From IMG/VR virus record IMGVR_UViG_3300020183_000007, positions 115,609 to 179,608 of that record: a DNA stretch of 64,000 nt; one strand, 5' to 3'. Origin of the DNA: a virus. Shown piece by piece: positions 15,865 through 52,124 of the stretch. The notes under the pieces were generated by a model, which saw only the letters and a program-made list of their open reading frames with translations, was not told the DNA's origin and did no database searches. Every line of letters starts with the position of its first letter. The first letter of the stretch is position 1. The position numbers and the translations under genes are program-made.

Positions 15865-16314
15865 ATGAATTCTAATCCTGTTTCCCGTAGAAGTTTGCCT
15901 AAAAATATTGCTGACATTTACGATTCTTTTACCGATTTAACTTCTAAATGGAGAGAAAATGCTTTATGTAAAAATAGCGTTCTTTCTATGGAAGATTTCT
16001 TTTCTATCAATAGTGATAAAAAATCTGTCTATTCAGCTTCAAAAGCTATATCAATGTGTAATTCTTGTCCCGTTCAAGTTGAATGCCTACATGAATCTAT
16101 GAAATATAATTACGATGGCGTTTGGGGTGGGACACTATATCGTCAACGTATATATTTCATTAGAAACTATCTCAATAATGATCTTGCTAATCTGACTATG
16201 GAAAAAGCTAAAGAGTTCGTTCAAATGGCCAAAATCCAAAATCTTACACTTTTTAAAATTAAACGTAAATATCGCAGAAAGGCTGTACAGAAAGATGACT
16301 TACTTTCGCAATGA
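15865..16314 (+). CDS. whiB: WhiB-family Fe-S transcription factor
   Basis: WRENALC...FF...MCNSCPVQVECL...GVWGGT...QR. Confidence 0.88.
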   Translation: MNSNPVSRRSLPKNIADIYDSFTDLTSKWRENALCKNSVLSMEDFFSINSDKKSVYSASKAISMCNSCPVQVECLHESMKYNYDGVWGGTLYRQRIYFIRNYLNNDLANLTMEKAKEFVQMAKIQNLTLFKIKRKYRRKAVQKDDLLSQ

Positions 16315-17071
16315 CGATGATCTCTTTGATTATGACCCAGAGACAGATACCGATACAGAAGAAAGTGTTTCTGATTCACCTCAATCAGAACAACACTTTT
16401 CATCATCCTCGAACAAAAACAAAACTTTAGAAGATTTCATTTCTTCTGCTAAAGAATTCATAAATGAAATATCTTCAACTGAAATTTCTGCAATTGATGA
16501 GCGAAAGGTAAAACTTGCTACTAGTTTCCATGATGCTACTGCATTATATCATGAAAAAGTTCAAACTCCTGCTTACACTAAATCAGTAAGTATTGTTCTA
16601 AATACTTTGACTAATGGAGACTTTACTAAAATTCTAATGTTCAATCATAAAGAAGCTCTTATTCTTCAAAGACTTCGTTATTTATCTATGATGAATAAAA
16701 TTTTTTCTCAGTCAAATTTAGATCAAAGCGTTATTAAGGAACTCTTTGAATTTATGAATGTAGAATATTCCGTTGAACATGTGCAAATATTTTATTCTTC
16801 TTCTGTCAATATTTCTCGTTTTTGTTTAAATCTTGATAGACTTATATACAAATATTTGGGTGAAAAACTTAATCTTCCCATTAAACAAGAATTGCTTGAT
16901 GACACTTATATAAACGAACCAGATAAGTTTTTTGCTCAGCTTAATACTTCTGTTGTTGACGATTATGCATCTCAATCATATGGTTCTCTTTATGCTGAAA
17001 TGGCAAATGATGGTATTTTGCAAGGTCTTTCTAATATTTATAATATACCATTCAATTATAAGGCTAATTGA
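16295..17071 (+). CDS. hypothetical protein, acidic N-terminus
   Basis: 258-aa ORF. Confidence 0.6.
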   Translation: MTYFRNDDDLFDYDPETDTDTEESVSDSPQSEQHFSSSSNKNKTLEDFISSAKEFINEISSTEISAIDERKVKLATSFHDATALYHEKVQTPAYTKSVSIVLNTLTNGDFTKILMFNHKEALILQRLRYLSMMNKIFSQSNLDQSVIKELFEFMNVEYSVEHVQIFYSSSVNISRFCLNLDRLIYKYLGEKLNLPIKQELLDDTYINEPDKFFAQLNTSVVDDYASQSYGSLYAEMANDGILQGLSNIYNIPFNYKAN

Positions 17072-17532
17072 TGAAAAAAATAAAGCTTATTTTTCGTAAA
17101 GTTCCTAAAATTACATGGACTATATTTACTGCTTCCGCAGTGGCAGCAGTTAATTATTCTATAATTCACAGTTCATTTGTATTTTTCGCCATGCTTGTTT
17201 TATTTACTCATGAAATAGCTCATTATTTTATGGCCAAAAAGCTTGGTTCCAACCCATCTTTTCCTCTTTTTATACCACTGCCATTATTTGCTATAGCCTT
17301 TACTAGGGTTCCAGGTTTATCCAATGAGTCACAAATAAAAGTAGCCCTTTCGGGTCCTCTTGTAGGATTTTTAACTGCTTTTGTTTTATTTCTTTTAAAT
17401 ATTATTTTTAACTTCACTACTACAATAGGTCTCGCTGTATTAGCTATCGGTGAACTCTTTTTCAATTTTATGGGAACTGATGGCGCAAAATACCGAACCG
17501 CAAAAAGGAATATTGCATTATGCATCTCTTAA
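17071..17532 (+). CDS. peptidase M50 (site-2 protease)-like membrane protein, short form
   Basis: HEIAH (HExxH) in a TM helix and VALSGP motif. Confidence 0.7.
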   Translation: MKKIKLIFRKVPKITWTIFTASAVAAVNYSIIHSSFVFFAMLVLFTHEIAHYFMAKKLGSNPSFPLFIPLPLFAIAFTRVPGLSNESQIKVALSGPLVGFLTAFVLFLLNIIFNFTTTIGLAVLAIGELFFNFMGTDGAKYRTAKRNIALCIS

Positions 17533-18319
17533 TACTTCCCTTTATTTTAGCTGGTGTAAGTGCTAAGGTCATTAATAATAGACTGAAAAACAAAACCCCA
17601 GAAAAACAAATTGATATTATATTGGCTAGTTTCTTTACCACAGTAACACCACAACACTTTGGGGAATTCAATGAAAATATCCAAAATTCAAATAAAACAT
17701 CAAGAAGAAAGAGACAAAATACGCACTAAAATATCTAACTTTTTGGAAAATTCTTATTTTGACATACAGAGTCTCACTCCGGGAGCTGCAATAGACGAAC
17801 AGTATTTGGCTAGGGTACTTACAAAGTTAGCGATAGGATCTGCCACTGTATGGTGGTCTATACTAGAAATCAAAGATTTTATTGTTCTTCGTAAACTCAC
17901 TAAAGGAGTTAAACGTGACATATCCCAATAATCTTCCGCCATCTTCTAAAATCGCTATGGACAATTTCAACTTTTCTTTCTCAATGGCTAATAAAGCTAG
18001 TGTTGAAATACAAAAATCTTATGATGCCATTTCAGAAAGAATTCAAGCTATCGTAGAATCTGAAAAGTTTTATGTTTCTGGCATTCCTGTTCTCAAAAAT
18101 ATTCTTATGCTTGGCGGCACTAAGAATGATCTTAAAAAACTAGCCAAAGCTTTATCTCGTTTGGCGGATCTTGTTGATGTCCATGAAACTCTTGAAGGCA
18201 AAATGAGTCTTGTTAAAGTTATTAATGATGATCCTCATTGGTTTGCTTGGGCTTTTGGTGATTTTTCCAAAGACGTTGATGTGGGCATTGACAAGATTTT
18301 TAAAGAATTAGACAATTAA
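17520..18319 (+). CDS. three small hypothetical proteins (17520-17729, ~17680-17931, ~17927-18319)
   Basis: Overlapping + strand ORFs leading into the ubiquitin-like cassette. Confidence 0.4.
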
Positions 18320-18339: not shown

Positions 18340-19773
18340 ATGAGCAATGTACAATATTCTTTTGTTTCAACAGAAGAAGGGCATCTTACTTTTCGTTCTT
18401 CTGTTAATTCTTTTGGTCTAGACCATGTTACTGATAAGGACATGGTTTCTTTTTATACATCTTTCTCTAATTATGCCTACATTGATACTGGATTGATGCC
18501 TGTTGATGGTTCAGGTTTATTAGCTCTTCGTTCCGCTGGCAATCATACCCAAATTGTTTATCAACATAAACCAGGTATGTATTATATTAACTGGGGTTCG
18601 CATGAGGGTGACAAGGATGCTGTTAAGTATTATGTTGCTCAACCTTATCGCATTGTTATTGCCGACCTTGTAGATGGAAACATTTACGGTGCAAGAACAT
18701 TCTATACACCAATTCCTGTCACTTATCCTGATATACCACTCTATCACGTTAATCTTCCAAATATTAATTGCAAAGGGTATCGTGGCAATGCAGTAGGCTG
18801 GATTTGTTTGTACCATACTGAAGATATAACAAATTATCCTTTTGGAGAAAAGCTTGCCAAAGTTCTTGATCGTTGTTCTGGTACTGAAGCTTACAACGAT
18901 ATTAATATGAATGAAACTGATGGTCCTCGTTTCTATTCCGAAAACGAAAAACCAAGTTTTCTTCATGATCCTTTTGAATGGCAAGAATATTCTCATAAGT
19001 ATGGATATGAATGGACTCTTGATCCCGACCTATGGATCCCTGTTTTAGTTAAAAATCGCGACGATCAAGGCAAACACGATTATAGTGGTCAGCCATTAAC
19101 TTTGGCTGATGCTATTACTGGTAATTATTCTGTTTATTATTCCGATACTGTCATACCCAAACCTGTTAATCAAATACTTCGCTCTGACTATTCTCTTCCT
19201 TCTTCTAAAGTTTTTGCTTGGTTTAAACAAGCTTACAATTCTTCTACCACTCAATCTCCTGTTATTAATGTCATTGAAAAATCTCAAACTATTAAAGTAG
19301 ATCAAAGCAATGCCCAACCAGTATTTGTACCAGAAGAAGATGTATCAGAAGAAGATGTATGGTACTGTGACAACTGTCAAGAAACCTTTTCAGTTCATGA
19401 TTGTACTCCAAATACCACATATCATTCTGCCTTTATTTGCGCTCATTGCTTTGAAGATAAATACGTTTATGCTTTAAATACTAACGATTATCATCATGCC
19501 GAATCTGAAAATATGTTGTGGTTAGCTATTTCGGATGCTTGGATCTATCTTCCCAAGGCATCTCCTGAAACCTACAAATATTGTAGCGATTGTGATACTG
19601 GTATCTATATAACTCACCAAAAATTTGATGAATTCCATATGGCTCCCAAAGAAGCAGATTTACCTGAAACTTGTCTTTCTTGTTATGAACAATTTCAAGC
19701 TCAACAACATAACTATGAAAATTCTTTAATAGCTTTAGATGAAACGCCAGAAGAAAATACAACGCCTTTTTGA
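18340..19773 (+). CDS. prokaryotic E2-like (Prok-E2 family D / PRTRC protein B-like) protein with Cys-rich C-terminus
   Basis: QPYRIVI...PLYHVNLPNIN...GWICL (putative catalytic Cys); C-terminal CxxC pairs; adjacent to JAB, E1 and Ubl. Confidence 0.6.
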   Translation: MSNVQYSFVSTEEGHLTFRSSVNSFGLDHVTDKDMVSFYTSFSNYAYIDTGLMPVDGSGLLALRSAGNHTQIVYQHKPGMYYINWGSHEGDKDAVKYYVAQPYRIVIADLVDGNIYGARTFYTPIPVTYPDIPLYHVNLPNINCKGYRGNAVGWICLYHTEDITNYPFGEKLAKVLDRCSGTEAYNDINMNETDGPRFYSENEKPSFLHDPFEWQEYSHKYGYEWTLDPDLWIPVLVKNRDDQGKHDYSGQPLTLADAITGNYSVYYSDTVIPKPVNQILRSDYSLPSSKVFAWFKQAYNSSTTQSPVINVIEKSQTIKVDQSNAQPVFVPEEDVSEEDVWYCDNCQETFSVHDCTPNTTYHSAFICAHCFEDKYVYALNTNDYHHAESENMLWLAISDAWIYLPKASPETYKYCSDCDTGIYITHQKFDEFHMAPKEADLPETCLSCYEQFQAQQHNYENSLIALDETPEENTTPF

Positions 19774-19826
19774 TATGACAAACATAAATATACAAATAAT
19801 TAAAATATTAATATTTAGGAGAAATA

Positions 19827-21530
19827 ATGTCTGAACAACTAGCTCTTCCTCTTGAGCAAAACGAAGAAGAATATCTTACATTGGAAGATCTTAATCCTCT
19901 TTGGATTACTCCTGATGGTCTTCCAACTTTTATGGCAGATAGATCTGACATTTGTGAATGTATTGAGTCTTTTGGTTTTAGCATTTATTATATTATTGCT
20001 AACGAAGCAAAAGAAATTAAGCCTACAAATACTTCTTCTCACTACACTGGTACTGTTACATACAATAATACCAATAAAACAGCTGCCATAACTCCTGTTC
20101 CTGTTATCGTTAGGTCTTCTCAAATCTATCGTGTTGTTAACAATTTTGTTGGTCGTTCTGTTGCGGCTGTTCGCCCAGAACTTACAAGCGATTTTGTTGA
20201 TATGGAAGAGGAGGCTATTTACAACATGCCTCCAATTCCTTATATTCTCATTGAAAAGCTTGATCAATTCTTTAGACTTGTTGAAGCTCAACATGGTACA
20301 GAATCTATCGTGATGCTTACATTTGACCAAGACAAACAGGAATCTGACGGCTGGGGCATACTTGTTCCCGATCAGTCCAATACTTCTGTTCACTGCAATT
20401 ACGATCCAGACAGTATCGCTCAGATTAAACCCGACAATGTCCTCATCGTTGGCTCTGCGCATAGTCATCCTGGAATGAGCGCTTATGCTTCTGGGACTGA
20501 TCATGCAGATCAAGCTGATTTTGATGGTATTCACATTACTTTTGGCTGGCAAAAATCTGTAAACAACGGTGCAACTCAATATTATATTGAAATGCAAATG
20601 GCTGGAAAAGCTTACAAGCTTGATCCAGAAGATGTTTTTGAAGGTTACAATATTGATAGGGCCCCAGATCCTGAAGTTGTAGGATGGACTGATAAAGTAA
20701 AAAAAGTCAACCCCCCCAGTACGGGGGGTACAGTAACGGCAGTTCCTGGGCAACCTCTGCCCCAACCCCAGGCTCCTATTCAGGCTACTACGGTGGGTGG
20801 ACCCAGTAGTAAAAAGCTTACTGGTTATATCAATTATTCCTCTCATATGTTAAATATTATAGATGAGACTATAAGTTATGAACACAAAGCTATTCTTGTT
20901 TGCGAAGTAACTCCTGCAAATGATAAAACTAAGTTTCATTGTCCATCTTGCTTTTCTTATCTTCCTATCAGTTCTATAACTCGTGATTATTGTTGTTCTT
21001 TTTGTGACGTTCCCTTGTGTCTTCCGGACACTTCAATAGATCAAATAGTTTATGATATATCTAAATATTGTGAAGAAAGAAATATTTCTCAAGACGCTGT
21101 TTTATATATGCTCACTAAAGATATTCAAAATGAATACATGATTTTGAGACTTACTCCAGAGCTAATTACTGATTATCTTGATTATCAATGGCCAAAAAAT
21201 AATTCTCCTATTAATGATGAACAGCTTACTCTTTGTTGTTCTCAAACTAAAGATCAATGTTTTTGTGAAGTTCAAATTCTAACTATGGATACTTTTGATT
21301 TTGATAATTTTATGGGGAATTCTGATGTTTATTCACAACATTCTGATTGCTGGAAGTGTGAGCATTATTACACAGCTCACTGCCCTAGATACATAGATCT
21401 TGTAACCACTTTTATGTCTTCTCCTGACAAGAAAGAACCAAAGCAATATTCTGAAACTATTGTTTCAGACGGTTGTGCATATTATAAAGACATATATGCA
21501 TATGAAAGAGATACATATGAACCCCACTGA
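19827..21530 (+). CDS. JAB/MPN+ metalloprotease (deubiquitinase-like) with Cys-rich C-terminal extension
   Basis: GTES ... VGSAHSHPGMSAYASGTDHADQ (E...HxHx7Sx2D). Confidence 0.85.
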   Translation: MSEQLALPLEQNEEEYLTLEDLNPLWITPDGLPTFMADRSDICECIESFGFSIYYIIANEAKEIKPTNTSSHYTGTVTYNNTNKTAAITPVPVIVRSSQIYRVVNNFVGRSVAAVRPELTSDFVDMEEEAIYNMPPIPYILIEKLDQFFRLVEAQHGTESIVMLTFDQDKQESDGWGILVPDQSNTSVHCNYDPDSIAQIKPDNVLIVGSAHSHPGMSAYASGTDHADQADFDGIHITFGWQKSVNNGATQYYIEMQMAGKAYKLDPEDVFEGYNIDRAPDPEVVGWTDKVKKVNPPSTGGTVTAVPGQPLPQPQAPIQATTVGGPSSKKLTGYINYSSHMLNIIDETISYEHKAILVCEVTPANDKTKFHCPSCFSYLPISSITRDYCCSFCDVPLCLPDTSIDQIVYDISKYCEERNISQDAVLYMLTKDIQNEYMILRLTPELITDYLDYQWPKNNSPINDEQLTLCCSQTKDQCFCEVQILTMDTFDFDNFMGNSDVYSQHSDCWKCEHYYTAHCPRYIDLVTTFMSSPDKKEPKQYSETIVSDGCAYYKDIYAYERDTYEPH

Positions 21531-22281
21531 TTCCAAACGTTTCATTCTTGTTGGCGCTGGAGGAATCGGCACTTGGCTTGCCGCTGGTCTTGTTCGCCTT
21601 CTTGAATGGAAGTTTCCCAATTCTGCTCTTATCATTGTAGATGGCGATACTTACGAAGAAAAAAACAAAGAGCGTCAAGATTTTACTAAGCTCGGCAATA
21701 AAGCCGTTGTCAAAGCTACAGAATTAGTTCCACAATTTCCCAAAACTACAATTATCCCCGTTGCTAAATGGGTTGTTGATGATAATTTTTCTGGAATTGC
21801 GGACGAACAAAGTCCTAAAATTAAAGCTAGTGATCTTATCAGAGAAAACGATGTTATTTTTGCTGTAGTTGACAATTTTGCTGCAAGAAAAATACTTTTT
21901 GATGCCGCAACAAAACTTAATAACGTTGACGTTTTTACAGGCGGAAATGACGATGCTTTATTTGGTTCTATTTATCATTATCAGAAACGCGATGGCGTAG
22001 AGATTACTGTTCATCCAGCTGAATTTCATCCAGAATATCATAATCCTCCAGATAAAAATCCTGGTGAACTCAGCTGCCAACAGCGTTCTCAAATTGAAGG
22101 CGGAACACAGCTTCTTGCTACTAATATGGCGGTTGCATCTTTTATTCTGGGTAGGGTTCAGAAAATTATAGTGTCCAATCAGAGTCCGGAAGAAACAGAA
22201 ATTTTCTTCGATCTGGGCATAGGCAAATCTGAGCCGTACAACAGAATGCATTCATCCCTGAATGAAACAATTACAGTATAA
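21517..22281 (+). CDS. ThiF/E1-like activating enzyme
   Basis: LVGAGGIG, IVDGDTYEEKNKERQ, VVDNFAARK, ELSC catalytic-Cys region, QLLATNMAVA. Confidence 0.9.
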   Translation: MNPTDSKRFILVGAGGIGTWLAAGLVRLLEWKFPNSALIIVDGDTYEEKNKERQDFTKLGNKAVVKATELVPQFPKTTIIPVAKWVVDDNFSGIADEQSPKIKASDLIRENDVIFAVVDNFAARKILFDAATKLNNVDVFTGGNDDALFGSIYHYQKRDGVEITVHPAEFHPEYHNPPDKNPGELSCQQRSQIEGGTQLLATNMAVASFILGRVQKIIVSNQSPEETEIFFDLGIGKSEPYNRMHSSLNETITV

Positions 22282-22302
22282 TATAAAATAGGAGATATTA
22301 CA

Positions 22303-22557
22303 ATGGAAACCTCAAGTAGCAGTGAAGGACAGCCAAGCCGTTCTTCCGGTATGGCCAATATTCGTTATGGCGTTTACAATCAGCCTAGCAATATTGCCGG
22401 TAAGTCAATCAAGGAAGTTCGTGAGCAATTCAGCAAGATTTGGGGAATCCCCAATGATGCTGTCGCATACTGTGGCAAAGATAAGCTTGACGAGAACGCA
22501 GTAATTCAACCTGGTCAGAACGTCGAATTTCACCGTCGTGCTGGCGAGAAGGGCTGA
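22303..22557 (+). CDS. ubiquitin-like (beta-grasp) protein with C-terminal Gly
   Basis: 84 aa, follows E1; GKSIKEVR...IP...VIQPGQNVEF beta-grasp pattern ending RRAGEKG. Confidence 0.7.
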   Translation: METSSSSEGQPSRSSGMANIRYGVYNQPSNIAGKSIKEVREQFSKIWGIPNDAVAYCGKDKLDENAVIQPGQNVEFHRRAGEKG

Positions 22558-22568
22558 TTACTCATATA

Positions 22569-22630
22569 CGAACAGTTGTTTCTAACACTGTTCGGTAGGG
22601 GGAGGATACTCTTTATGGGTATCCTCCCCC
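22569..22630 (+). terminator. tandem hairpins (terminator/processing site) after the Ubl gene
   Basis: CGAACAGT...ACTGTTCG and GGGGGAGGATAC...GTATCCTCCCCC. Confidence 0.6.
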
Positions 22631-22685
22631 TCTCATTTACTTCATTATTTAAAAATCCTACAACTAATATTACGGTGATAAGATA

Positions 22686-24290
22686 ATGTTTGACAAAATT
22701 AAACTGGGATGTCCCAATCTTTGGCTTCAGTCTTCTGATTTTTCAAGGGTTACTGACATTATTACATCTACTATTTCTCGCAATTTTTACACTATGGATT
22801 TTGTCAATGGATTTTCTAAGTTTGTTGATGGACAATGGAAACAAATTCTTGTACCTAATCCTGCTTACCCTGAAATGGCCACTGATTCACATATAATCAC
22901 TTTTGATCCTCAAGTCGCTCTACATTATCTTACTACAGACAAAACTATTACTCGTTCTACATATATTATTAATGTACCTTCATCTCCGGCTGATTCCATT
23001 ACACCTTATTCTTCTATTCTTTACCATTTCAAATCTCTTTATCGCACAGCCTTTTGGGCAGACGATATAGCAGCAATGCCTTTGCAGTTTATTTTTATTT
23101 CTGCTCTCGAATGCCCAGAAGATTTTGTTCATTTGTTTACTGTTCTAGAAGATTCTTATCCAACTCCGCAAGAACTTTCTACAATCGTTACTCATATTAA
23201 TGAATCAGCTCATGACCGTCTTATTACTGGCACTACAGTAAAAGAGATTGTTAACGCTGGTATCGGCCTTTCCGAATCCCAGTTTATTGATCTGTGCCTA
23301 ATGTCCGTTGTCAATAATTCTAAAATTGATCCCAAGTATATTTATGATGTCAAAATGGCTAATATAAAGAAGAATGGTATTCTTGAAATACTTAAGCCTA
23401 CCATATCTTTTTCTGATATTGGCGGTCTTGATAATATTAAGGATATCATTCGTCGTACTGCTGTTTTGCGTAAAGATCAACATCGTGCAATTTCTTTTGA
23501 TGTAGTGCCAATCAGAAGACTTCTTATGGTTGGTGTTCCTGGTACTGGCAAATCTGCTATTTGTCAAGCTACTGCTAAAGAACTCAATCTTGATCTTGCA
23601 CGCACTGGCATTAGCCAAGTTATGAATTCTTTCATTGGCCAATCAGAGGCCAATATGCGTGCAGTCTTTAAGCAGATCAGAGCCATGTCTCCTTTGTGCG
23701 TATGGATTGACGAGTTTGGTCGCGATCTTTCAGGTGGCACAAGTTCTTCTCATGTCGACGGTGGCACAACTGATCGTGTTCACGGTGAGTTTTTGACTGG
23801 TCTCCAAGAACTTCCTGAAGACACATTTTTGTTGTGTGCTGCGAACTCTCTTGATTCTCTGAAACCAGAAATGCTTCGTGCTGACCGATTTGACAAAATT
23901 ATGTTTGTTGGTTTACCTTCTTTTAGTGAACGCAAACATATTTTTCAAATTCATCTTTCTAAAATTGATACAGATCATTCTTTTGATTATGATGCTATCG
24001 CTGATGCAACTCAGTACATGACTGGTGCTGAGATAGTCTCTTTGATTAAAGAAACTAAATTTTATGTTGTTTCTGAATCTTTGAGACCTATCGAAACAAA
24101 TGATATTCTTACTTATGCTTCTAAAATTAAAAATATTATTTGGATGAAACATCATGAAACGGTTGTCTCAATGTACAAATATGCGTTGGAACAGTGGGAT
24201 TGGGCATCCACAGAACAAATGAACGATGCTACAATAATACTATCCAAAACTTCAACGCAAAAACAATCAACATCCGTAACATGGAAATAA
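22686..24290 (+). CDS. AAA+ ATPase (Ycf46/CDC48-like)
   Basis: IGGLDNIK, GVPGTGKS Walker A, VWIDE Walker B, AAN...EMLRADRFD. Confidence 0.88.
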   Translation: MFDKIKLGCPNLWLQSSDFSRVTDIITSTISRNFYTMDFVNGFSKFVDGQWKQILVPNPAYPEMATDSHIITFDPQVALHYLTTDKTITRSTYIINVPSSPADSITPYSSILYHFKSLYRTAFWADDIAAMPLQFIFISALECPEDFVHLFTVLEDSYPTPQELSTIVTHINESAHDRLITGTTVKEIVNAGIGLSESQFIDLCLMSVVNNSKIDPKYIYDVKMANIKKNGILEILKPTISFSDIGGLDNIKDIIRRTAVLRKDQHRAISFDVVPIRRLLMVGVPGTGKSAICQATAKELNLDLARTGISQVMNSFIGQSEANMRAVFKQIRAMSPLCVWIDEFGRDLSGGTSSSHVDGGTTDRVHGEFLTGLQELPEDTFLLCAANSLDSLKPEMLRADRFDKIMFVGLPSFSERKHIFQIHLSKIDTDHSFDYDAIADATQYMTGAEIVSLIKETKFYVVSESLRPIETNDILTYASKIKNIIWMKHHETVVSMYKYALEQWDWASTEQMNDATIILSKTSTQKQSTSVTWK

Positions 24291-24302: not shown

Positions 24303-27153
24303 GTGACTAACAATGCTTATGATAATGTGGAAGATTTTTTATCTTCTATAGACGATGATGGTTCTCCTATTGAAACTATGAAGAATTCTGATAACAAAGA
24401 ATTTCATCAGGAGCTTTATAAGAAATGGTTTAGATCTAAAACTCAATCTGGCTTCTTAGCTATTCGCCCTTGGCATCAAGCTTTGAAGATGAAAATCGAT
24501 ATTGGTAAAACATCTCCGGAAGGCAAACTTGTTAGTAGTACCGCTGTTTTTGTTGATTCTATTGACTTTTCTGCTTATCTTAAATCCATTACTACGGAAA
24601 ATGCTGTAAACAATTATCCTAAAAACGACAAAATGGGCATTCCTACTGACGAAGGTTTTGTTTCTTATGGTGGCGCCGTCATTGATGGTAAGCCTATATC
24701 TAGAATATTTAAAGCCCATTATTGGCAGTTTGCAGAAACATATGACGCTACTGCTTTTGTTTGGAAGTGTGGCCACTTTGCTGCACGCAAATCTGATAGT
24801 GGTGCCTTTATTCCCGATATGAAATCACCTTTATCTGTAGATCAAATTAAGGTAACTCGTCAAGATATCTGTTCTATCTCTTATCTTATGAATTTATCTT
24901 TAATTTCTTATGTTGCAAATACTCAAGATTGGTATGAAATATGACGGATAGTAGCGAATATCTTGACAAAACCACTGCAGATTTTCTTACAAAATTTTTT
25001 CAAGATATTATAAACGGTTTAGCAGTTCAGATTGAAGATCGTCTTAAAACTGTAGAAACAGCTATTGAAGGCATTGAAAAGCAAGTTGCTACACTTGTTC
25101 TTAGTTATGGGGAACAGGCAGTTTTTACCGAAGCTTTAGTTGGTCAGATTGCTTTTGCCACCGACGAAGCACGTAAAGCCTTTCATGAAACTTTGCAGCA
25201 ATCGCGCAAACAAATGCTAGAGGTAATGCAAAATGCATCAAAAGGAATCTTGGCTGACGAAAATCCTAGAGTTGCCTCAGCCGTTAACAACTTGGCTACA
25301 GAAAAGTTATTTGATACAAACTCCTGATTTTTCTTGCGTTTTATTCGTAGATAATTATTCTGAAGTTTTATTGAAGAATTTAACTTATCTTAGTCAAATA
25401 TATCCTTTAGCTAAATCTTTGTATCCAACAATTACGTCTTTGCACGTAGCTTCAACTACTCTTCAAGAGTTTATAAAAACTGGTAAAATTGAAATATATT
25501 CCATAGAGGTGAATTTATGACTGTGGTGCAACGCTTTGAAAATACAACACATTTATATAATTATTTTGTGTCTTCTCTTTCGTCTAATAATTTTGTAAAA
25601 CTAAATCAAGACAATGTGCAACTTTTCGCTGAGACATATTCTCTTCATTCTTCTATTATTAATGAAGTTTCCCAGTCTCCTTATAATTTCTATCTTTATA
25701 CTTCTTCTAAAACTTCTTATCGTAAGAATGTTCATCCATATTTACCTAACGTTCTTTACAAAAGATTTTTTAATAGTCTAAAGATATTCAATATTATACG
25801 TGAAGCTTCTTCTTCAATGGTTCTTATTCACATGTTGCCTTTTAGTGAAGAACTATTTGATTCCATCAACAATTCTTCTAATTTAGATAATATCAAAGTG
25901 CTTAATCAGATTATTGACAATTTTTCTAATGTATCTGCTGATAATCAGTATTACATTGATTATATTAAAACTTTAGAAGCAAAATGTTTAGAACTTCAAA
26001 ATTTAAACTCTAATCTTTTGGATCAAATTCAAAATTTTAAACTGACTACTTGGTACTGAATATTATGTCTGATGATTCTTTTACTTTTGATAGTTTTTCA
26101 TTTGTAAATAATTTTAATAATTTTAACGATATTATTTTTAAACAAGATTCTAATTTAAGTTTAGAAGAATTTTTTGCCGATTTCAAAAAAACAGTTTCTA
26201 AACTTACAAAAGAAAGTTTGATAGAAAAGGTAAATACTGACATGTCCAATTACCCAATTGTTCCTGTTTCCTCGGATCAATACAAGGCAGTTATATACCC
26301 ACATATGTCACCTGAAGGTAAACCCTTACATTTCAATTTATATATTAATCATGATCCTTCATTACCTTCTGATATTGTTGTTATAGACTACTTAAATTCT
26401 GGTGAATTGTTTTGTAATCTTTCTCAAATTAATCTTCAAAACACTCGTCCTTTACTTCAAAATCTATATGCCAGATATTTAAGTTCACCTGAATTTGTTA
26501 ATGACACCCATCCAATAGGATACACATCTACTATGATACCTTCCGCTGTAACATGTGTTTCTCCTGTAAATTCTGATTCTATAGCTTGGTCTTTTCCTCT
26601 GGCTAAACTTTTTGATTATACTCATGTTTCAAAGGATATTCCGGTTTGCCAGTATTACACTCATCAATCATTGGACGATTCTGTTCCAGTTATTATTTCT
26701 TCTAAATATAAATACGCTAATGTAATTCCCGGCAATCATATGTGTTCTCATCCATCTGTGTCTCAGAATCCTTATAGTTGTTCATTTTTTACTTTTTTCT
26801 CAAATTGTTCTATGTATTCTCCGTCCCAACAAGAAATATTATTTAAAACTGTGACATCACCTAATTCTTCGTCCACTCTTGATTTTGTGTTAACTTACTC
26901 TCTTACTTCTTCGGGTAACCATATGTTCGTTTTAACGAATCAAACTATTGGTGAAGACGTTAATGTATTAGTTTATCCTCAAACTTATTCTTATGATAAA
27001 TGTTTAGAAGAAGCCACTTCAATATATAATCAATATATTGAACCGTATTCTTCTACTCTTTGCGTTATTTCTGAAAACCAAAAAATTAGTTCTTCTGATT
27101 CAACAAAATATGTAGAAAAAGAAAGTTATATTACATCTCTCTTGGTAGGTTGA
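24303..27153 (+). CDS. five hypothetical proteins (24303-24944, 24941-25327, ~25233-25520, 25517-26059, 26050-27153)
   Basis: Tightly overlapping + strand ORFs; no recognisable motifs. Confidence 0.55.
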
Positions 27154-27154
27154 A

Positions 27155-28792
27155 ATGTATTTAGATAATCAACATTTTACTAGTGAACAATCTTTTCTGA
27201 ATTCAGATTCTTTTATTACTTATTCAATAAATTATTCTAATTCTAACATTGATCCTTTATTGGAATATTCTCGTTATGCACTAATTCTTTCAAGAAAAAA
27301 TTTTATTCATCCTAGCACTTTAGATCTTTTTAAAGAAAAATATACTGCTTGCGATCCTGTTGTTCTTAACAATATAGATGAAATATTTTCTAAAGCTTTA
27401 GATCCTCACAAATATAATGATAATTATAATGACGATACAGGCTATCATTATTCTCCTCCGTATGTATTTTCTTCTGAAGCTTCTATTCTTTCCTCTATAT
27501 CTATTGAAAACCTTGCGAATATTCATGCTAAATCTTTACAATCTTCTGTTCCTACCTCAACTTACCCCGTAGCAACAAGGTATGTTTCCTCTAATGGAAC
27601 GCTGTTTATTGAGCGTCCGCCATTTCAGGCTACCATAGATTACAAACCTGGTAATGCTTCAACTAAAAAGGCAAAGTTGCCTTCCAAAACCGTATGGATA
27701 CCTTGGACTATTTATGTATTTAATCCAAATTATCCAGGTGGATCTCAACACATGTATTTTTCCTATAAATCTTTGACTTCTATGTCAGATAGTTATTATC
27801 CTACTTATCTTCCAAATACTCATACTGATGGAAGAATATGCTATTCTAATAGTTTATCTACTCTTCCTATTCTCAGTTCTGATATTACTCCTGATTCTAT
27901 GTATTCTTACATGATCAATGAGTTTTTTGCTGGTTCTTGGAATTCTGATCTTGTGAATCCCTGGTACTATATGTTTTATGAAAGACTTAGAAATCATATA
28001 AAATATTATGAGTATTCTGATCTGGATAAAGAAGAATTTTCATATCGTATGCCTCTTTTGTTCAAATTATTTCATCCTTCTCCTGAAATAATGCAACAAG
28101 CTGAACTTAACAAGATTCAGAAAATTTGGCAATATTATAATGAAAATATTCCTTCTAGGTTCTTTTATGATTTGCCGTCAGATTTATTTCACTATTCTCT
28201 TTTGTCTTTATTATCTACTTTTTCTCTTAAAGAAATTCTTTCTGTTCAAGAAGAAGTACATTTGATCTACCAAGACGTAGAACTTAAAGGTACAAATTCT
28301 ATTTTTAATAATTTTCATAATTATCTTAATTTTAAACCTAAATCTTTTGAAGAGATATCTACGCTAAATACACATTTGCGTACAACAACACTTGTGTCTT
28401 CCCATGTTCGTGAGATTGTCAACTTAGCGTGTGCTGAAAATTCTCTTTTTTCTGAATTTGATTATAACAAACTTGACAGACAAATTATTGCTGTTAATGT
28501 TCCTCCTTCAAACACTCCATTCAATCATCTTTCATATCATGCAAGAAATACAGTTTATTTTAATTCAATTAATGAACTTCCATTTGCTCCATCTTTTGTT
28601 ATACCTATATATAATGTTGACAATTCGCAATCTTATTACCTAATTCCTTCTTCTGATATCTCTGTTGAACAACTTTATCTAGAAATGCTTAAAGTATATA
28701 TAGATAATAGTCATTATTTTCCTTGTCAATCTACTCCTTTTTATGAAATCTTTCCTTTAAGAAGTGACATTTTATCTCTTAGTCAAGGATGA
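27155..28792 (+). CDS. second Prok-E2-like domain protein
   Basis: ERPP...WIPWTIYV...MYFSYKSL...YYPTYLPNTHTDGRICY. Confidence 0.5.
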   Translation: MYLDNQHFTSEQSFLNSDSFITYSINYSNSNIDPLLEYSRYALILSRKNFIHPSTLDLFKEKYTACDPVVLNNIDEIFSKALDPHKYNDNYNDDTGYHYSPPYVFSSEASILSSISIENLANIHAKSLQSSVPTSTYPVATRYVSSNGTLFIERPPFQATIDYKPGNASTKKAKLPSKTVWIPWTIYVFNPNYPGGSQHMYFSYKSLTSMSDSYYPTYLPNTHTDGRICYSNSLSTLPILSSDITPDSMYSYMINEFFAGSWNSDLVNPWYYMFYERLRNHIKYYEYSDLDKEEFSYRMPLLFKLFHPSPEIMQQAELNKIQKIWQYYNENIPSRFFYDLPSDLFHYSLLSLLSTFSLKEILSVQEEVHLIYQDVELKGTNSIFNNFHNYLNFKPKSFEEISTLNTHLRTTTLVSSHVREIVNLACAENSLFSEFDYNKLDRQIIAVNVPPSNTPFNHLSYHARNTVYFNSINELPFAPSFVIPIYNVDNSQSYYLIPSSDISVEQLYLEMLKVYIDNSHYFPCQSTPFYEIFPLRSDILSLSQG

Positions 28793-29946
28793 GTATGCAA
28801 AATTTTAATTATCTTTCATTTACCCCTTATGGTTGCCTTATCAGACATCCTCTATATGATGATGAAATATTTGTTTCTAATTCAAACAATTATCTTACCG
28901 TTAACGGATCTCAAACTGAAATTCCTGAACGTATAGTTAATCCTATTATTAATTATTTTAATTCTCTTTCTAGTAAATCTACTATTCAAGCTGACACCGG
29001 TATACTCCCACCCGGATTAATTCATGTGGATAATCAATATGTTATTTTTGAACGTCCACCGACTTATCAAAATATACAGTTAATTCCAGCAACACTAGAA
29101 CACATTGACGAAAAATCCTATAAAAAGTATATATTTAGACTTCCAATTCCCTGGACCGTATATTTCGTTTCATATTCCATTTACAATGGTGCCTATTACC
29201 CGTATCGTATAGCCATGTACTTCATGGCTAATTCTTTACAAGGATCAGCTTTAGATTCTCATCGGTTATATTTGCCACCTTTAGTTAATTTTTATAACAA
29301 TTCTACTTTATGTAATCCTATGTTTGATAGCATGGATGAAGTAACTCGTTATGAAAATAATGTTTCTGGCGTTATCAACGCTGCTTATAATTGGATTTGG
29401 AACACTGGATCAAACCTTGATTTGACCACCAATATTGTTGAGTGTATTATTCAAGGTAATCAAAATTCTTATTTTCCATCTTCTCATCCCTTTCATATTA
29501 ATAATATTGGTTTGTCAAATTACGCTATTTCTTCACATTCTTATTATATTGAATTCCCTTATATAGCTCGTGCTTTTCAAAATTGGGAAAAAATATCTAT
29601 AGATCAAATATCTTCAATTTCCTGGCCTAATCCTTGCACTTGTGAGCAGGTTCACCATCACATACATAATATAGGTACTTCAATGCTTCTTGATTATTTT
29701 CGAGATCATGATATAGATCCTCTTTCGGTTGCTCTTTCCCCAGAAGAGTCTGAAGAAACTGGTAATCTGTATCATTATAATGAGTTCGCTTATTATAATT
29801 ATCTTCGCAAATTACAATCTCCTCCACTTTATTTTAATCAAGCAGCTGAAACATTTGCATCCAATACTCAAGTCACTTTTCAGGATGCTCTTTCTCTTGA
29901 CAAAATCATTTCAAATGTTTTTTTAACTCTTTCTTCTCTTCTATGA
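28789..29946 (+). CDS. third Prok-E2-like domain protein
   Basis: TGILPPG...FERPP...LPIPWTVYFV...LYLPPLVNFYNNSTLC. Confidence 0.5.
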   Translation: MSMQNFNYLSFTPYGCLIRHPLYDDEIFVSNSNNYLTVNGSQTEIPERIVNPIINYFNSLSSKSTIQADTGILPPGLIHVDNQYVIFERPPTYQNIQLIPATLEHIDEKSYKKYIFRLPIPWTVYFVSYSIYNGAYYPYRIAMYFMANSLQGSALDSHRLYLPPLVNFYNNSTLCNPMFDSMDEVTRYENNVSGVINAAYNWIWNTGSNLDLTTNIVECIIQGNQNSYFPSSHPFHINNIGLSNYAISSHSYYIEFPYIARAFQNWEKISIDQISSISWPNPCTCEQVHHHIHNIGTSMLLDYFRDHDIDPLSVALSPEESEETGNLYHYNEFAYYNYLRKLQSPPLYFNQAAETFASNTQVTFQDALSLDKIISNVFLTLSSLL

Positions 29947-35409: not shown

Positions 35410-36241
35410 CCTAATCAAATTCCATATGTTTATATTAATTTTTTTTATTAGTTTATTTTTCTATTTTTTTTTCACATCAAACGTTTTGGCTTATAATTTT
35501 ACTTTAAATAATTCTCAAAAAGTATGTGTTACTTCTGGATCAAATACACCACCTTCTCAAGGAACTCTTTATTGGGTTAATTATTCTAATCCTCCTGCAA
35601 ATCCAGCTTACACATATATTTCTTTAGATTCTTGGGATTCTTTATCAATTGATCAAAAGTTTTATATCAAACCTTCTTGGACTTTTATTTTTTCTGGAAA
35701 TTGTAGTTCTTTAAATGTTACTTATGTATTTTCGGATAACAGTCCTTCTACTACTATTTTTCAATCTATCCCTTCTACTACTGTCATTCCCTTTATTCCT
35801 TCTACTACTATTTTTCAATCTATTCCTCCTTTTACTACCATCCCTAATCTTACTCCTACTACAGAAATTTTGTTGCCTCCAGTTTCTAGTGTAGAACCTT
35901 CTATTCCAACTACTGATACAATTGTTGACAACGAAAAACAAAAGTCTGTCCCTGTTGCCAATACTTTACCTAATTATAATAAAGTTACTACTACCATTTT
36001 TGAATCTACAACTACATTAGCTTATCATTCTGATACGACTCTTACTGATCAAAAAGATCAATCAAAAATTTTACCTCTTGATGATCAACCTAGTCAATAT
36101 GATCCAAAATATGTTGCTCTATACGCACTTATAGCTTTTCTTGTATTTCTTTTACTTAATAATTTTATTAAATATACCCAAATTTATAAGTATGGCCATG
36201 AAACTTGGCCTCAAAGAATATGGAGGGTTTTTTTCAAGTGA
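35399..36241 (+). CDS. membrane protein with Ser/Thr/Pro-rich 9-aa repeats
   Basis: N- and C-terminal TM helices; [27 protein letters not shown] repeats (26-nt direct repeat at 35744 and 35798). Confidence 0.6.
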
Positions 36242-37398
36242 AAAAAATTTATAAGATACCTTTATTATTTATAGTAATTTTTTTGTTCGTTTCAATATCT
36301 TATGTTAAAGCTTCTAATACAAATTCAACGCCAACTTCTGTTTTTATACCTATTGCTCCAACAAGAATATTAGACACTCGTTCTTCTTACAAAGTTGGTT
36401 CTCTTGACGGTTCTTCTAGTCCATATATTCTTCAGGTTTCTGGATCAATATCTATTCCTCAATCTAATGTTCAAACTATCGTTCCGTTAAATAGTTATGC
36501 AGTTTCCTTAAATTTAACGGCTACTCAAACTCAAGCTAATAATTTTGGTGGATACATTACAGTATATCCTTGCGGCGAAAGACCCGATGTTTCTAATATA
36601 AATTTTATTAACGATCAAACAATAGCCAACTCTGTTTCGGTCCCACTATCTGAATCTGGGAGTATTTGCATATATGTTTATGGAAGATCTCACATACTTA
36701 TAGACATTGCTGGATATTATCAAGTTATATCTTTTACTGGAGGTCAACTTGTTAGGGGTCCAGCGGGTCCATCAGGTCCACAAGGTCCAGCAGGTGCTAC
36801 GGGAGCTACTGGTGCAACTGGTGCAACTGGTCCTACTGGCCCAACAGGGGCTACAGGTGCAACCGGACCGACTGGCCCGACAGGAGCAACGGGAGCAACA
36901 GGGGCGCAAGGACTTCAGGGCCCAACTGGACCACAAGGTTTACAGGGTTTACCCGGCCCTCAAGGTCCCGCTGGAAATAGTTATACAGTAATGCCTATTT
37001 TAGCTCAAACGTACAGTAATTCTTATTATGACATATTAACTTTTAATGCTTCCTCCGATCAAATAATTCTTGGAGTTAAGTGTCAAAAAGATCTTGGTAG
37101 TGATATCGTAAGACATTATGTCAGAACATCTACACCAACTAATTCAATTATACAAGGCTATTATTTATCCAATCGATTTACATATAACAATTCTTCTGCA
37201 TCGGGCTCTGTTCTCCACGGTATAAACGCTTTTCCTGGTTCAAATAAAGAAATAGCTATTTGGAACGGTGGAGAGACATCTTACGATGGTCACTATGAAA
37301 TTCATATTATGACTCAAACTAATTTTATAGAAATACAATTATTTGTTCAAATTACTTCAAATAATTGTAAATATTCTGTTGCTTATACAGTTTCTTAA
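36238..37398 (+). CDS. exported protein: actinobacterial surface-type domain plus collagen-like (Gly-X-Y) segment
   Basis: Signal peptide; PTRILDTR...SLNLTAT...[16 protein letters not shown]...IANSV...HILIDIAGY; ~24 GXY triplets. Confidence 0.7.
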
Positions 37399-49548: not shown

Positions 49549-49923
49549 TCAGTACTCTTCATAGCCATTTATTATATAGTTAACTGTAGTTGCACTTGCT
49601 TTACCGCGAATTTTATCCGAATAGGTATCACCAGCTGTATTATCACTATTTGTTAATACAAGAGATGTTGATAAAGTAACTGTTTCATTTGCCGCTAAGG
49701 CAAGAGCATTTATAAAAACATGATCGGTGGCGACAGCAACATTTTTTGGTTTTAAAAAAAGAGTAACAGTAGCTGCAGACGCTGCTGTATTGCATAATAT
49801 AATTTCTTTAATAACAGTAGTTGTAGTATATCCAGTGTTTCTTGGGACAGTATATAAATCCTCTGCTGTATCAGCTACAGCAAAATTGTCAGGACCAGAT
49901 AAACGCTTTTGCGTTAATGGCAT
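49549..49923 (-). CDS. putative virion structural protein
   Basis: DLYTVP...[10 protein letters not shown]...[10 protein letters not shown] pattern typical of small tail/capsid-decoration beta proteins. Confidence 0.5.
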
Positions 49924-52124
49924 TATAAAACCTCCATAATAAATTTAATCATATTATTTCGTACTTGTTTGGAATTAATCCATACGGATCCATTATACAT
50001 TAAATGGTCACCATTCGCTACAGAAGTTATAGTAACATCAGATAAATCATCTAACGGTCCAGTTGGACCACTTGGTCCCTGTGCTCCTTGTGCACCCTGT
50101 GCGCCCTGTGCTCCAGTTGCTCCAGTAGAACCCTGTGGTCCGGTATTTCCCTGTGGACCCGTTGCGCCTTGTGGACCCGTCGCTCCCTGTGCGCCTGTCG
50201 CACCCTGTGCACCCTGAGGACCAGTTGCCCCAGTCGCACCAGTATCACCCGTGGCTCCCGTGGCTCCCTGTGAGCCAGTTGCCCCTTGCGGACCCTGTGG
50301 CCCTGCTGCTCCCTGAGGACCTGTGGCTCCTTGGGGTCCTGCATCGCCCTGAGCGCCCTGAGGGCCGGTTGAACCCTGGGGTCCTTGCGCACCAGTTGCT
50401 CCCGTCGCACCCTGAGCACCCGTTGATCCCTGTGGTCCCACATCACCCTGTGGTCCTTGTGCACCAGTTGCGCCGGTTGCCCCTTGGGCACCTGTCGCAC
50501 CCTGCGGTCCCTGTGCCCCCGTTGCTCCGGTTGCTCCTTGTGCGCCCGTAGCACCAGCGTCTCCTTGTGGACCTTGAGCACCAGTAGCGCCCTGAGCACC
50601 AGTAGCACCAGTAGCACCTTGAGCACCAGTAGCACCTTGAGCGCCCTGTGCGCCAACATCTCCAGTTCGAGCAAATGTAATGATGACATCATCGTTGTTT
50701 GCGAATGGTGTAGTGCTTGAGCCTGTAACAAACGACGACGAAACGCGGAAGAATCCGGTTTCTTCAGTTATTGAAGAAATGGTGAATAGAGCAAATGCCG
50801 ACGAATCACCTTTTTTAGAAACACGGAAGTGACCCTTAATTGTGCTCGTAGAGTCATCAATTGTCCTTAGGTATGACTGAATGTCCGTTGAGTTGTCATC
50901 AACGTCATCAATAATTAGTTCAGTCGATGTGTCCAGGGGTGAATTATTGAACTTTAGTTTTCCTGCACCGGGATCAGTTTGTGCTGTGTTTGAATTAAAG
51001 GTGTAGTCAAATGTAATTCCACCAAAGTTGCCCTGAGCACCCTGTGGACCCTGCGAGCCTGTTGCTCCCTGTGCTCCGGTTGAGCCTTGTGCTCCGGTGG
51101 CCCCCTGAGGGCCAGCATCTCCCTGAGGACCAGTTGCTCCTTGTGCGCCGGTATTTCCTTGTGGACCGGCTGCCCCCTGAGCGCCAGTTGCGCCCTGGGG
51201 TCCGACGTCGCCTTGCGCGCCCTGAGCCCCAGTTGCTCCCTGTGAACCCTGTGCTCCCGTAGCGCCCTGAGGACCGGTTGCTCCTTGTGCACCCGTAGCG
51301 CCCGTAGGGCCTTGTGGACCAGCATTTCCTTGTGGCCCTGTCGCCCCCTGTGCCCCTTGGGGGCCCTGTGGCCCTGTATCCCCCTGGGGACCAGTCGCTC
51401 CTTGGGGGCCAGTAGAACCTTGAGGGCCCTGAGGGCCCTGGGGACCCTGGGTGCCCTGTGGCCCTGTCGCCCCCTGTGCCCCCTGTGCCCCCTGAGGACC
51501 CTGGGGGCCAGTTGCCCCCTGTGGCCCTGTGTCTCCCTGTGGCCCTGTCGCCCCTTGCGGTCCCTGGGCACCAGTGGCACCAGTTGCGCCTTGTGGCCCT
51601 GTTGCCCCCTGTGCTCCGGTGGCCCCTTGTGCTCCAGTGGCTCCCTGAGGGCCTTGAGCGCCCGTAGCGCCCACATCGCCCTGAGGACCGGTCGCCCCCT
51701 GTGCTCCCTGAGGACCCTGAGAGCCTGTTGCCCCCTGTGGTCCTTGTGCACCAGTTGCTCCGGTTGCGCCTTGGGCGCCTTGTGGGCCAGTTGCGCTACT
51801 TGGGGCAAACTTAGTTCCGTTAAAAACAAGAGCCTGACCGTTTGTTGCACCAGTGCTATCGATCTCAATATTGTCAACAAACAAACTTGAAACATAGACG
51901 GAACTAGGTAAACTTATTGTAAATGAACCAGATGTCTCACTTACTGTTATTTGATTTGTTGTACCAGAAATTCCTGTAATTAATTTTGCGCCAACAATTG
52001 TATTAGATGCATTTTTATAAAAAAGTTTACCATCATTATAATTTATTGCTATTTCGCCATGAGTTAAACTAGAGGGTACAGACGTAGATGTACTTGAATT
52101 TTTAATTAAAAGAGTATTCGCCAT
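49923..52124 (-). CDS. collagen-like tail fibre protein
   Basis: Two long GXY blocks (~50060-50660, ~51030-51800) around a globular domain; N-terminal [16 protein letters not shown]; C-terminal LDDLSDV...[11 protein letters not shown]. Confidence 0.85.

Follow-up and report, generated by a model that had tools for sequence, protein, structure and literature searches.

The question raised by this locus is whether a bacteriophage encodes a ubiquitin-like protein-conjugation system of its own. The stretch of DNA analyzed here (the window; 64,000 nucleotides) is the last 64 kb of IMG/VR virus record IMGVR_UViG_3300020183_000007, which is 179,608 bp long with a CheckV completeness of 85% and derives from an uncultured phage with a genome of about 180 to 210 kb. 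A sequence-only reading of the window had proposed that five contiguous genes form a complete cassette composed of an E2-like protein, a JAB peptidase, an E1, a ubiquitin-like protein (Ubl) and an AAA ATPase. The list of open reading frames (ORFs) of the window contains five co-oriented ORFs that correspond to these genes in position and motifs:

18340..19773, plus strand: E2-like protein, 477 amino acids
19827..21530, plus strand: JAB/JAMM metallopeptidase, 567 amino acids
21517..22281 (ORF open from 21460), plus strand: ThiF-type E1, 254 amino acids from the likely start, 273 amino acids from 21460
22303..22557, plus strand: Ubl, 84 amino acids
22686..24290, plus strand: AAA ATPase, 534 amino acids

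The motifs quoted for these genes were all located, namely VGWICLYH, HSHPGMSAYASGTD, GAGGIG, ELSCQ, and, directly before the stop codon, the C-terminal AGEKG. Judged by comparison with related sequences, the five ORFs are real genes and not chance ORFs, because more than 426 clusters are homologous to the E2-like protein and 87 to Ubl, and the genes follow one another in the same order in 47 related IMG/VR loci. Pfam recognizes three of the five proteins (JAB, E1, and the AAA ATPase).

We consider it probable that the E2-like, JAB, E1, and Ubl genes, perhaps together with a conserved ORF immediately upstream (g17882), constitute a phage operon for ubiquitin-like protein conjugation that is a very diverged relative of PRTRC. 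The latter, the ParB-Related, ThiF-Related Cassette, is represented in NCBIfam by PRTRC_A (TIGR03735) and PRTRC_ThiF (TIGR03736), and its proteins B and C match Prok-E2_D and Prok_Ub, respectively. The observations that carry this interpretation are the genes themselves, their predicted folds, invariant catalytic residues, conserved synteny, and an operon boundary. The four types of protein expected of such an operon, including a Gly-ending beta-grasp Ubl, are thus present in a phage as the sequence-only reading had held, with catalytic residues that are invariant across relatives.

The two enzymes with direct family matches are intact in their active sites. The E1 belongs to Pfam ThiF (3.8e-12), and all 26 of its 26 orthologues, at identities of 49–96%, keep the glycine-rich loop (G13, G15, G16, and G18), D42-G-D44, N50, R53-Q54, D119-N120, and C187. 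The codon of Cys187, which lies in the motif PGE-x-SCQ, occupies nucleotides 22075–22077. The nearest solved structures are those of UBA5, Uba4, MccB, and SAE2, all at about 4e-4, and the E1 profile aligns with the PRTRC ThiF protein of plasmid pPniHBP1_2 (locus L053) with an hhalign probability of 72% and an E-value of 3.5e-5, the Ser-Cys of the two proteins being aligned. The peptidase just passes the threshold for Pfam Prok-JAB (8.8e-6; 26 bits against a cut-off of 25). Its JAMM motif, E...HxHx7Sx2D, is intact (E159, H212-x-H214, S222, and D225; about nucleotides 20301–20501), and these residues are invariant across 26 orthologues, while the N-terminal part of the protein is variable and the C-terminal part is both Cys-rich and variable. 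In the most divergent relatives (L044, L046, L047, L048, and L049; for example, L046:11470-13364), the JAB gene is split. The first ORF, of ∼420 amino acids, comprises JAB plus a single zinc ribbon, and its end, ...GK(G/A/D/S), recalls the tail of Ubl; the second, of ∼190 Cys-rich amino acids, is the counterpart of the C-terminal part of the JAB protein in the window.

The putative modifier is small and well conserved. Its homologues are 82–86 amino acids long at identities of 61–89%. A disordered and variable segment of ∼17 residues is followed by a beta-grasp core and by the tail EFHRRAGEKG, which is invariant in the alignment and ends at the stop codon. The AlphaFold2 model (predicted local distance difference test score of 80) has the topology beta-beta-alpha-beta-beta-beta, and its best matches in the PDB by Foldseek are ubiquitin, SUMO, and NEDD8 (probability of 1.0, root-mean-square deviation of ∼2.2 Å, ∼70 columns). 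Thus, the 84-residue protein is predicted to fold like ubiquitin or SUMO, and the beta-grasp fold ascribed to it earlier agrees with the model. Among 32 orthologues from related phage contigs, 30 have a terminal Gly followed directly by a stop codon. The other two (L050 and L049) have two further residues and end in GEKG+NI and GEKG+LA. To judge from their sequences, the extended proteins look like precursors that require trimming, as would be expected if the terminal Gly of a modifier has to be laid bare.

Related cassettes in culturable Bacillus phages show a more elaborate tag gene. A tblastn search with the E1 of the window identified phages vB_BceM_WH1 (LC597490.1, 230 kb) and Edson (PV796108.1, 234 kb), and a search with the tag protein of WH1 identified vB_BauM_KLEB27-3 (OM634661.1, 217 kb). 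The cassette genes are gp211–gp216 in WH1 and gp199–gp194 in KLEB27-3. Hidden Markov models of our families identify gp216 of WH1 as the E1 (7e-22), gp215 as the JAB protein (2.3e-12), and gp214 as the E2-like protein (probability of 96.8% by profile comparison, as detailed below), all three being homologous to those of the window and located, like them, in jumbo phages. In KLEB27-3, gp196 matches Pfam Prok-E2_D (2.7e-4), and a “PRTRC_A domain” is already part of the annotation of the JAB protein. The tag gene of WH1, gp211 (L066:1784-2683), encodes five head-to-tail units of 57 amino acids, each ending in AGTKG, with a tail of 15 residues after the last; gp199 of KLEB27-3 (L067:6995-7702) encodes four such 57-residue units ending in AGVKG plus a short tail at the C terminus. 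Pfam Prok_Ub matches gp211 in five stretches (3.4e-27), and the Ubl profile of the window aligns over its whole length with one unit of the Prok_Ub repeat protein (hhalign E-value of 1.2e-3). The repeats are nearly identical as protein units despite being only 76% identical as DNA, which points to selection on each tag unit. By its sequence, this tag gene has the design of a polyubiquitin gene, and such a design would imply that a peptidase, presumably JAB, processes the product and that the terminal Gly is important to the tag. In the database, gp211 of WH1 is annotated as a “virion structural protein”; the basis of that annotation could not be traced. The AG-x-KG tail is common to the Bacillus-phage tag and the Ubl of the window. 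The two cassettes differ in that the window encodes a single Ubl unit rather than four to five tandem ones, in gene order (Ubl-X-Y-E2-JAB-E1 in the Bacillus phages and E2-JAB-E1-Ubl in the window), and in the E2, which is short (241–255 amino acids) and devoid of zinc fingers in the Bacillus phages, whereas that of the window has zinc modules.

The E2-like protein is the most diverged component. At 90% identity its family forms the more than 426 clusters mentioned above and at 50% identity 232 representatives, none of which carries a Pfam annotation. When a representative library was searched with the family alignment, a discrete family was recovered, and none of the 150 matches listed connected it with annotated families. 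The N-terminal domain (roughly residues 1–300) is highly conserved, and at identities of 25–40% across 47 sequences N141, N143, G153, W154, and C156 are invariant. Cys156 (nucleotides 18805–18807) is part of a GW-x-C motif and, with the conserved Asn residues ahead of it, agrees with the HPN-type motif of E2 enzymes. The C-terminal part consists of two CxxC...CxxC zinc modules (Cys 343/346/367/370 and 415/418/445/448) with weak matches to PHD and LIM domains. Two to five such modules occur across the family, each modeled as a zinc knuckle followed by a helix. Family scans of 31 close and 47 divergent members, each taken singly, returned nothing, and searches of the phage collection with the DNA and with the E2-like protein gave no match. 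A PDB profile search, which returned zinc-finger noise alone, was dropped.

Profile comparisons place this N-terminal domain near known E2 families. The domain aligns with gp214 of WH1 and gp196 of KLEB27-3 over 168 columns (hhalign probability of 96.8%, E-value of 2.7e-10), such that C156 falls on their Cys. Against a profile composed of gp214, gp196, and eleven Prok-E2_D proteins, the alignment extends over 205 columns (probability of 91.2%, E-value of 9.7e-7). The hhalign comparison with a single PRTRC protein B sequence was not significant; comparison with protein B became informative only once the Bacillus-phage E2s and ten more Prok-E2_D sequences were added. In the ESM Atlas, the nearest clusters are viral, and 13–15% of their members carry PF14460 (Prok-E2_D). 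The second Foldseek match in BFVD is a 241-residue phage protein (E-value of 1.9e-8) that has the length of gp214. On these sequence and model comparisons, the 477-residue protein is likely E2-like and of the Prok-E2_D branch.

A Gly-ending beta-grasp protein beside an E1 of the ThiF/MoeB superfamily is also what a sulfur carrier system would look like. In such a system the E1 would adenylate the small protein, which would then be thiocarboxylated, as are ThiS, MoaD, Urm1, and TtuB, and serve as sulfur donor for a cofactor or for thio-modification of tRNA or DNA, with no tagging of proteins. The weak matches of the E1 to MoeB, ThiF, and Uba4 fit this scheme, as do the fold and terminal Gly that such carriers share with Ubl. 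However, a sulfur relay needs neither an E2-like protein with an invariant Cys nor an intact JAB peptidase. The best fold matches are ubiquitin, SUMO, and NEDD8 and not ThiS or MoaD, and the tail ends in KG, whereas carriers typically end in GG. The E1 lacks a rhodanese domain, no rhodanese or PP-loop thiolase match is found in the phage record, and the poly-Ubl precursors of the Bacillus phages fit a tag better than a carrier. A sulfur carrier function is therefore very improbable, and conjugation of Ubl is the preferred reading.

Among characterized and predicted systems, PRTRC is the closest. It belongs to the class of E1/E2/JAB/Ubl operons that Iyer, Burroughs, and Aravind predicted in 2006 (PMC1779556). 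Canonical PRTRC cassettes in temperate phages are noted by a 2026 paper on Burkholderia prophages, according to which their function has not been studied (PMC13366799). The four activities are the same as in the window: an E1 of the ThiF type whose loop contains Ser-Cys, a free-standing E2 (in the window, likely of the Prok-E2_D type), a JAB protein, and a Ubl ending in ...(A/E)KG, as exemplified by protein C of a Pseudomonas plasmid, which ends in ...AKG. Both cassettes reside on mobile genetic elements, and both are functionally uncharacterized. The link to PRTRC drawn in the sequence-only reading is borne out by the E1 and E2 profile alignments (probabilities of 72% and 91%), by the similar ...KG tail, and by matches to the curated PRTRC models that stay below threshold, with the E1 reaching 25.3 bits against a cut-off of 144.75 for PRTRC_ThiF (TIGR03736) and the JAB protein reaching 20.1 bits (3.8e-4) against a cut-off of 101.8 for PRTRC_A (TIGR03735). 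No match to the ParB, D, E, or F proteins of PRTRC was found in ten neighboring proteins scanned. The gene order of PRTRC also differs, and its location is a plasmid or integrative and conjugative element, whereas the cassette of the window lies in a core block of lytic-type jumbo phages. Further features unlike PRTRC are the zinc-ribbon extensions fused to E2 and JAB, an insertion in the active-site loop of the E2, and the presence of three E2 paralogues. We file the cassette as a relative and not as a member of PRTRC because it falls below the curated thresholds and lacks ParB, D, E, and F. Given its gene content and motifs, it is best regarded as a very diverged relative that probably works like PRTRC.

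The same logic of E1, E2, deconjugating peptidase, and Ubl underlies the bacterial anti-phage systems Bil, CBASS Cap2/Cap3, and Bub (PMC10557695, PMC10097602, PMC11601596), and JAB is used by CBASS Cap3 and Bil too. These are host-encoded defenses, however, whereas the genes of the window are phage-encoded and separate. CBASS has an E1-E2 fusion and tags a CD-NTase, while the E1 and E2 of the window are separate genes; Bub is reported to work through oxyesters and a serine protease (PMC11601596). The matches that PADLOC detects between the E1 region and Cap2-type E1-E2 models are weak (1e-6 at best), the remaining conjugation-cassette proteins have none, and there is no CD-NTase match among the flanking genes that were scanned for families. 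Lacking both an E1-E2 fusion and a nucleotidyltransferase, the cassette is not of the CBASS type.

Where the operon begins and ends can be judged from the 47 related loci, which lie mostly on contigs of 170–270 kb, and from two further features of the window:

17882..18319, plus strand: conserved ORF g17882, 145 amino acids, immediately upstream of the E2-like gene (20-nucleotide gap)
22569..22631, plus strand: two stem-loops directly 3' of the Ubl stop codon

In every locus with enough flanking sequence, the order is g17882, E2-like, JAB, E1, Ubl, AAA, g24303, g24941 ... g27155, and g28789, and E1 and Ubl are the best-conserved genes of the block. The g17882 gene directly precedes the E2-like gene in all 47 loci except L043, which starts inside the E2-like gene. 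It has no significant family match, and the transcription unit may begin with it. The stem-loops downstream of Ubl have a predicted fold energy of −41.5 kcal/mol with a z-score of −7.7, and the second stem is GC-rich with 15 predicted base pairs. Of the 22 gene ends in the block from 14.6 to 31.7 kb, no other has a hairpin that comes close to it in strength. Most relatives with a called intergenic gap have a GC-rich hairpin in the same place, usually followed by a U-run; the stem sequences differ. Judged by sequence and predicted structure, the stem-loops are probably an intrinsic terminator or a 3' element that stabilizes the mRNA, and they probably close an operon of four genes, or of five if g17882 is counted.

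This boundary bears on the AAA ATPase, which the sequence-only reading had made part of the cassette. Its single AAA module (Pfam AAA, 1.2e-23, with AAA_lid_3; residues 279–409) belongs to the classic clade; both Walker motifs (A and B) are present, as are arginine fingers and a pore loop with Phe-Ile-Gly. The module is preceded by an N-terminal domain of ∼230 amino acids with no assigned function. Over its whole length, including that domain, the protein matches phrog_8638 (2.4e-66), and PADLOC reports IetA-type matches. If the ATPase were an integral, Cdc48-like segregase or unfoldase acting on Ubl-tagged proteins, the five genes would form a miniature ubiquitin-segregase pathway. Consistent with this proposal, the AAA gene lies downstream of Ubl in every related locus whose flank reaches that far, its best PDB match is the D2 domain of Cdc48/p97/VAT (1.5e-54) with PAN also close, the aromatic-hydrophobic-Gly motif of the pore loop is kept along with the arginine fingers, and the N-terminal domain could bind the tag.

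Several observations point the other way. The strong, conserved hairpin separates Ubl from the AAA gene, and in the divergent relatives L044, L046, L048, and L049 ∼2 kb of other, unrelated genes lie between the two. Full-length homologues of the phrog_8638 protein occur in 70-kb Corndogvirus mycobacteriophages (27% identical across 89% of the length); there, the annotated neighbors of the AAA gene are hypothetical or ParB-like, with none of Ubl, E1, E2, and JAB among them. Conversely, none of the 14 annotated genes (∼11 kb) scanned around the vB_BceM_WH1 cassette gives an AAA match. The likeness to Cdc48 is also limited to the module: the classic-clade fold, pore loop, and AAA lid are shared with Cdc48/p97/VAT and PAN, whereas Cdc48/p97 forms a double ring from tandem D1 and D2 modules and the protein of the window has only one (TIGR01243, 114 bits against a cut-off of 803). 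The N-terminal domain is unrelated in sequence to the Cdc48 N domain, and the closest full-length relatives are the phage proteins of phrog_8638 and not Cdc48. The description of the protein as Cdc48-like thus holds for its ATPase module, closest to Cdc48 D2, and not for a tandem D1/D2 architecture. Finally, a protease partner is missing, as no proteasome-type (PF00227) or ClpP family member is matched in the 179.6-kb record, and a phage ubiquitin-proteasome pathway was dropped for this genome for that reason. An integral role of the ATPase is accordingly unlikely, though less so than the sulfur carrier scheme. Given the conserved hairpin after Ubl, the AAA genes standing alone in mycobacteriophages, and the lack of an AAA match among the 14 genes scanned around the WH1 cassette, the protein is best read as a neighbor, the first gene of the next unit.

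Conserved extreme C-termini are found in proteins on both sides of this boundary. Most E2-like orthologues end in an acidic-Pro-Phe tail (19762–19770), the AAA ATPase ends in a conserved Trp-Lys(-Ile) (24279–24287), and the product of g24303 ends in a conserved Asp-Trp-Tyr-Glu-x (24927–24941). These termini could be docking peptides.

Beyond the genes named in the sequence-only reading, profile comparison and an N-x7-C motif identify two additional E2-like paralogues downstream:

27155..28792, plus strand: E2-like paralogue 2 (g27155), 545 amino acids
28789..29946, plus strand: E2-like paralogue 3 (g28789), 385 amino acids

The motif is invariant in each, as N221-x7-C229 in paralogue 2 and N167-x7-C175 in paralogue 3, and has the canonical E2 spacing. 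The two families align with each other with an hhalign probability of 99.6% (E-value of 1.9e-24), and the N-terminal domain of the 477-residue E2-like protein aligns with the g27155 family with a probability of 86.5% (4.6e-6) and with the g28789 family with one of 97.5% (8e-12). Against the combined Prok-E2_D and Bacillus profile, the probabilities are 54.6% (1.2e-4) for g27155 and 94.0% (1.4e-7) for g28789. BLASTP among the three proteins is barely informative, and profile comparison is required.

By analogy with E1/E2 chemistry, we infer from this inventory a thioester relay and protein targets; any role in host takeover or phage assembly is likewise conjectural. The purposes suggested in the sequence-only reading, removal of host defense proteins or remodeling of proteins of the phage itself, are speculative. 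Ubl would be made with a free C-terminal Gly, with JAB trimming the two-residue extension in the few relatives that have one. The ThiF-type E1 would adenylate this Gly and take up Ubl as a thioester on Cys187, from which Ubl would pass to Cys156 of the E2-like protein and possibly also to the two paralogues at 27155–29946. Lysines of target proteins would then receive the tag, and JAB would reverse or edit the modification. Because no separate E3 is evident, the choice of targets might fall to the C-terminal extensions of the E2-like proteins, which are variable and include zinc fingers. We propose only tentatively that this amounts to a diversified phage tagging system, in which one E1 and one Ubl serve three E2-like proteins whose different appended domains (in one of them, zinc fingers) act as substrate selectors, making them E2/E3 hybrids that, in the course of infection, mark particular host proteins, for example defense or housekeeping factors, or the phage's own.

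Lysine need not be the acceptor. E1/E2-type chemistry acts on non-protein acceptors elsewhere, as in Atg8-PE, and with no target known the tag could be destined for a lipid, the cell wall, a nucleic acid, or a small-molecule amine. An E1 together with three E2-like paralogues that bear different appended domains, including zinc-finger extensions, is in keeping with macromolecular targets. Ubl could instead be a non-covalent, JAB-processed assembly chaperone like lambda tail-assembly proteins I and K. Phage tail-assembly pairs of Ubl and JAB that work with neither E1 nor E2 were described by Iyer et al. in 2006 (PMC1779556), but the window lacks the lambda-type TAPI/TAPK arrangement, in which Ubl lies beside tail protein J and a JAB-NlpC protein. 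Taken together, these alternatives are quite improbable, if marginally less so than a sulfur carrier, and conjugation to proteins remains the interpretation that we favor.

A number of points nevertheless weigh against a conjugation operon of this kind. The Asn-to-Cys spacer of the E2-like protein is 12 residues long rather than the canonical seven, owing to the insertion in the active-site loop. The protein has no direct match in Pfam, PHROG, NCBIfam, or PADLOC, a six-frame search of the phage record for PF14460 found nothing, and the whole 477-residue model gives no significant Foldseek match in the PDB. VIA-align superimposes 100–129 residues of the model on UBC9, E2S, UbcH10, CdnG-E2 (the CBASS E2), and RWD domains with a Z of 3.2, which is below the level that the tool calls meaningful and too weak by itself. 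Ubl likewise has no direct match in Pfam, PHROG, or NCBIfam and none in PADLOC. Synteny alone is no proof of joint function, the whole 15-kb region being collinear in these phages. Biochemical data exist neither for this cassette family nor for PRTRC, and no target, E3, or phenotype is known.

Other features of the window lie outside the putative operon. A short way upstream are genes for a WhiB-like regulator (15865–16314; Pfam Whib, 2.9e-11) and for a small membrane protein that weakly matches Peptidase_M50 (17068–17532; 5e-4). Still further upstream, a gene at 7616–8638 encodes a ParB-like protein of 340 amino acids with a DGQHR domain (TIGR03187, 3.9e-9) and weak matches to DpdB and Dnd-associated proteins; it is not a ParB of the PRTRC type. 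Downstream, a collagen-like tail-fiber protein with Gly-X-Y repeats (36205–37398) matches many PHROG tail-fiber families, and its gene marks the start of the structural genes ∼6 kb past the last E2-like paralogue. A lone GC-rich stretch at 50001–52000 (GC of 0.59, compared with about 0.35 elsewhere) overlaps an ORF of 733 amino acids on the minus strand (49923–52124). One homologue is labelled Flavobacterium sp. and comes from a metagenome-assembled genome.

To judge from its distribution, the conjugation cassette belongs to the core of a clade of uncultured jumbo phages that is of some size. It is new as a strongly diverged variant of a known, functionally untested type of system, and ubiquitin-like conjugation genes go unmentioned in a 2021 comparative overview and a 2026 review of jumbo phages (PMC7824862, PMC13282480). 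Prokaryotic ubiquitin-like conjugation has recently been shown to serve anti-phage defense in Bil, CBASS Cap2/Cap3, and Bub. A full kit of this kind, conserved and apparently active, at the core of a large jumbo-phage clade would show that bacterial viruses use the same chemistry. If diversified tagging is true, it would mirror, on the viral side, the ubiquitin-like defenses Bil and CBASS of bacteria, and the polyubiquitin-like precursor genes of the Bacillus jumbo phages would belong to the same biology. The cassette would also provide a first way into the function of PRTRC-type cassettes, still untested since their prediction in 2006, and the related cassettes in culturable phages of the Bacillus cereus group make the question of conjugation testable at the bench.

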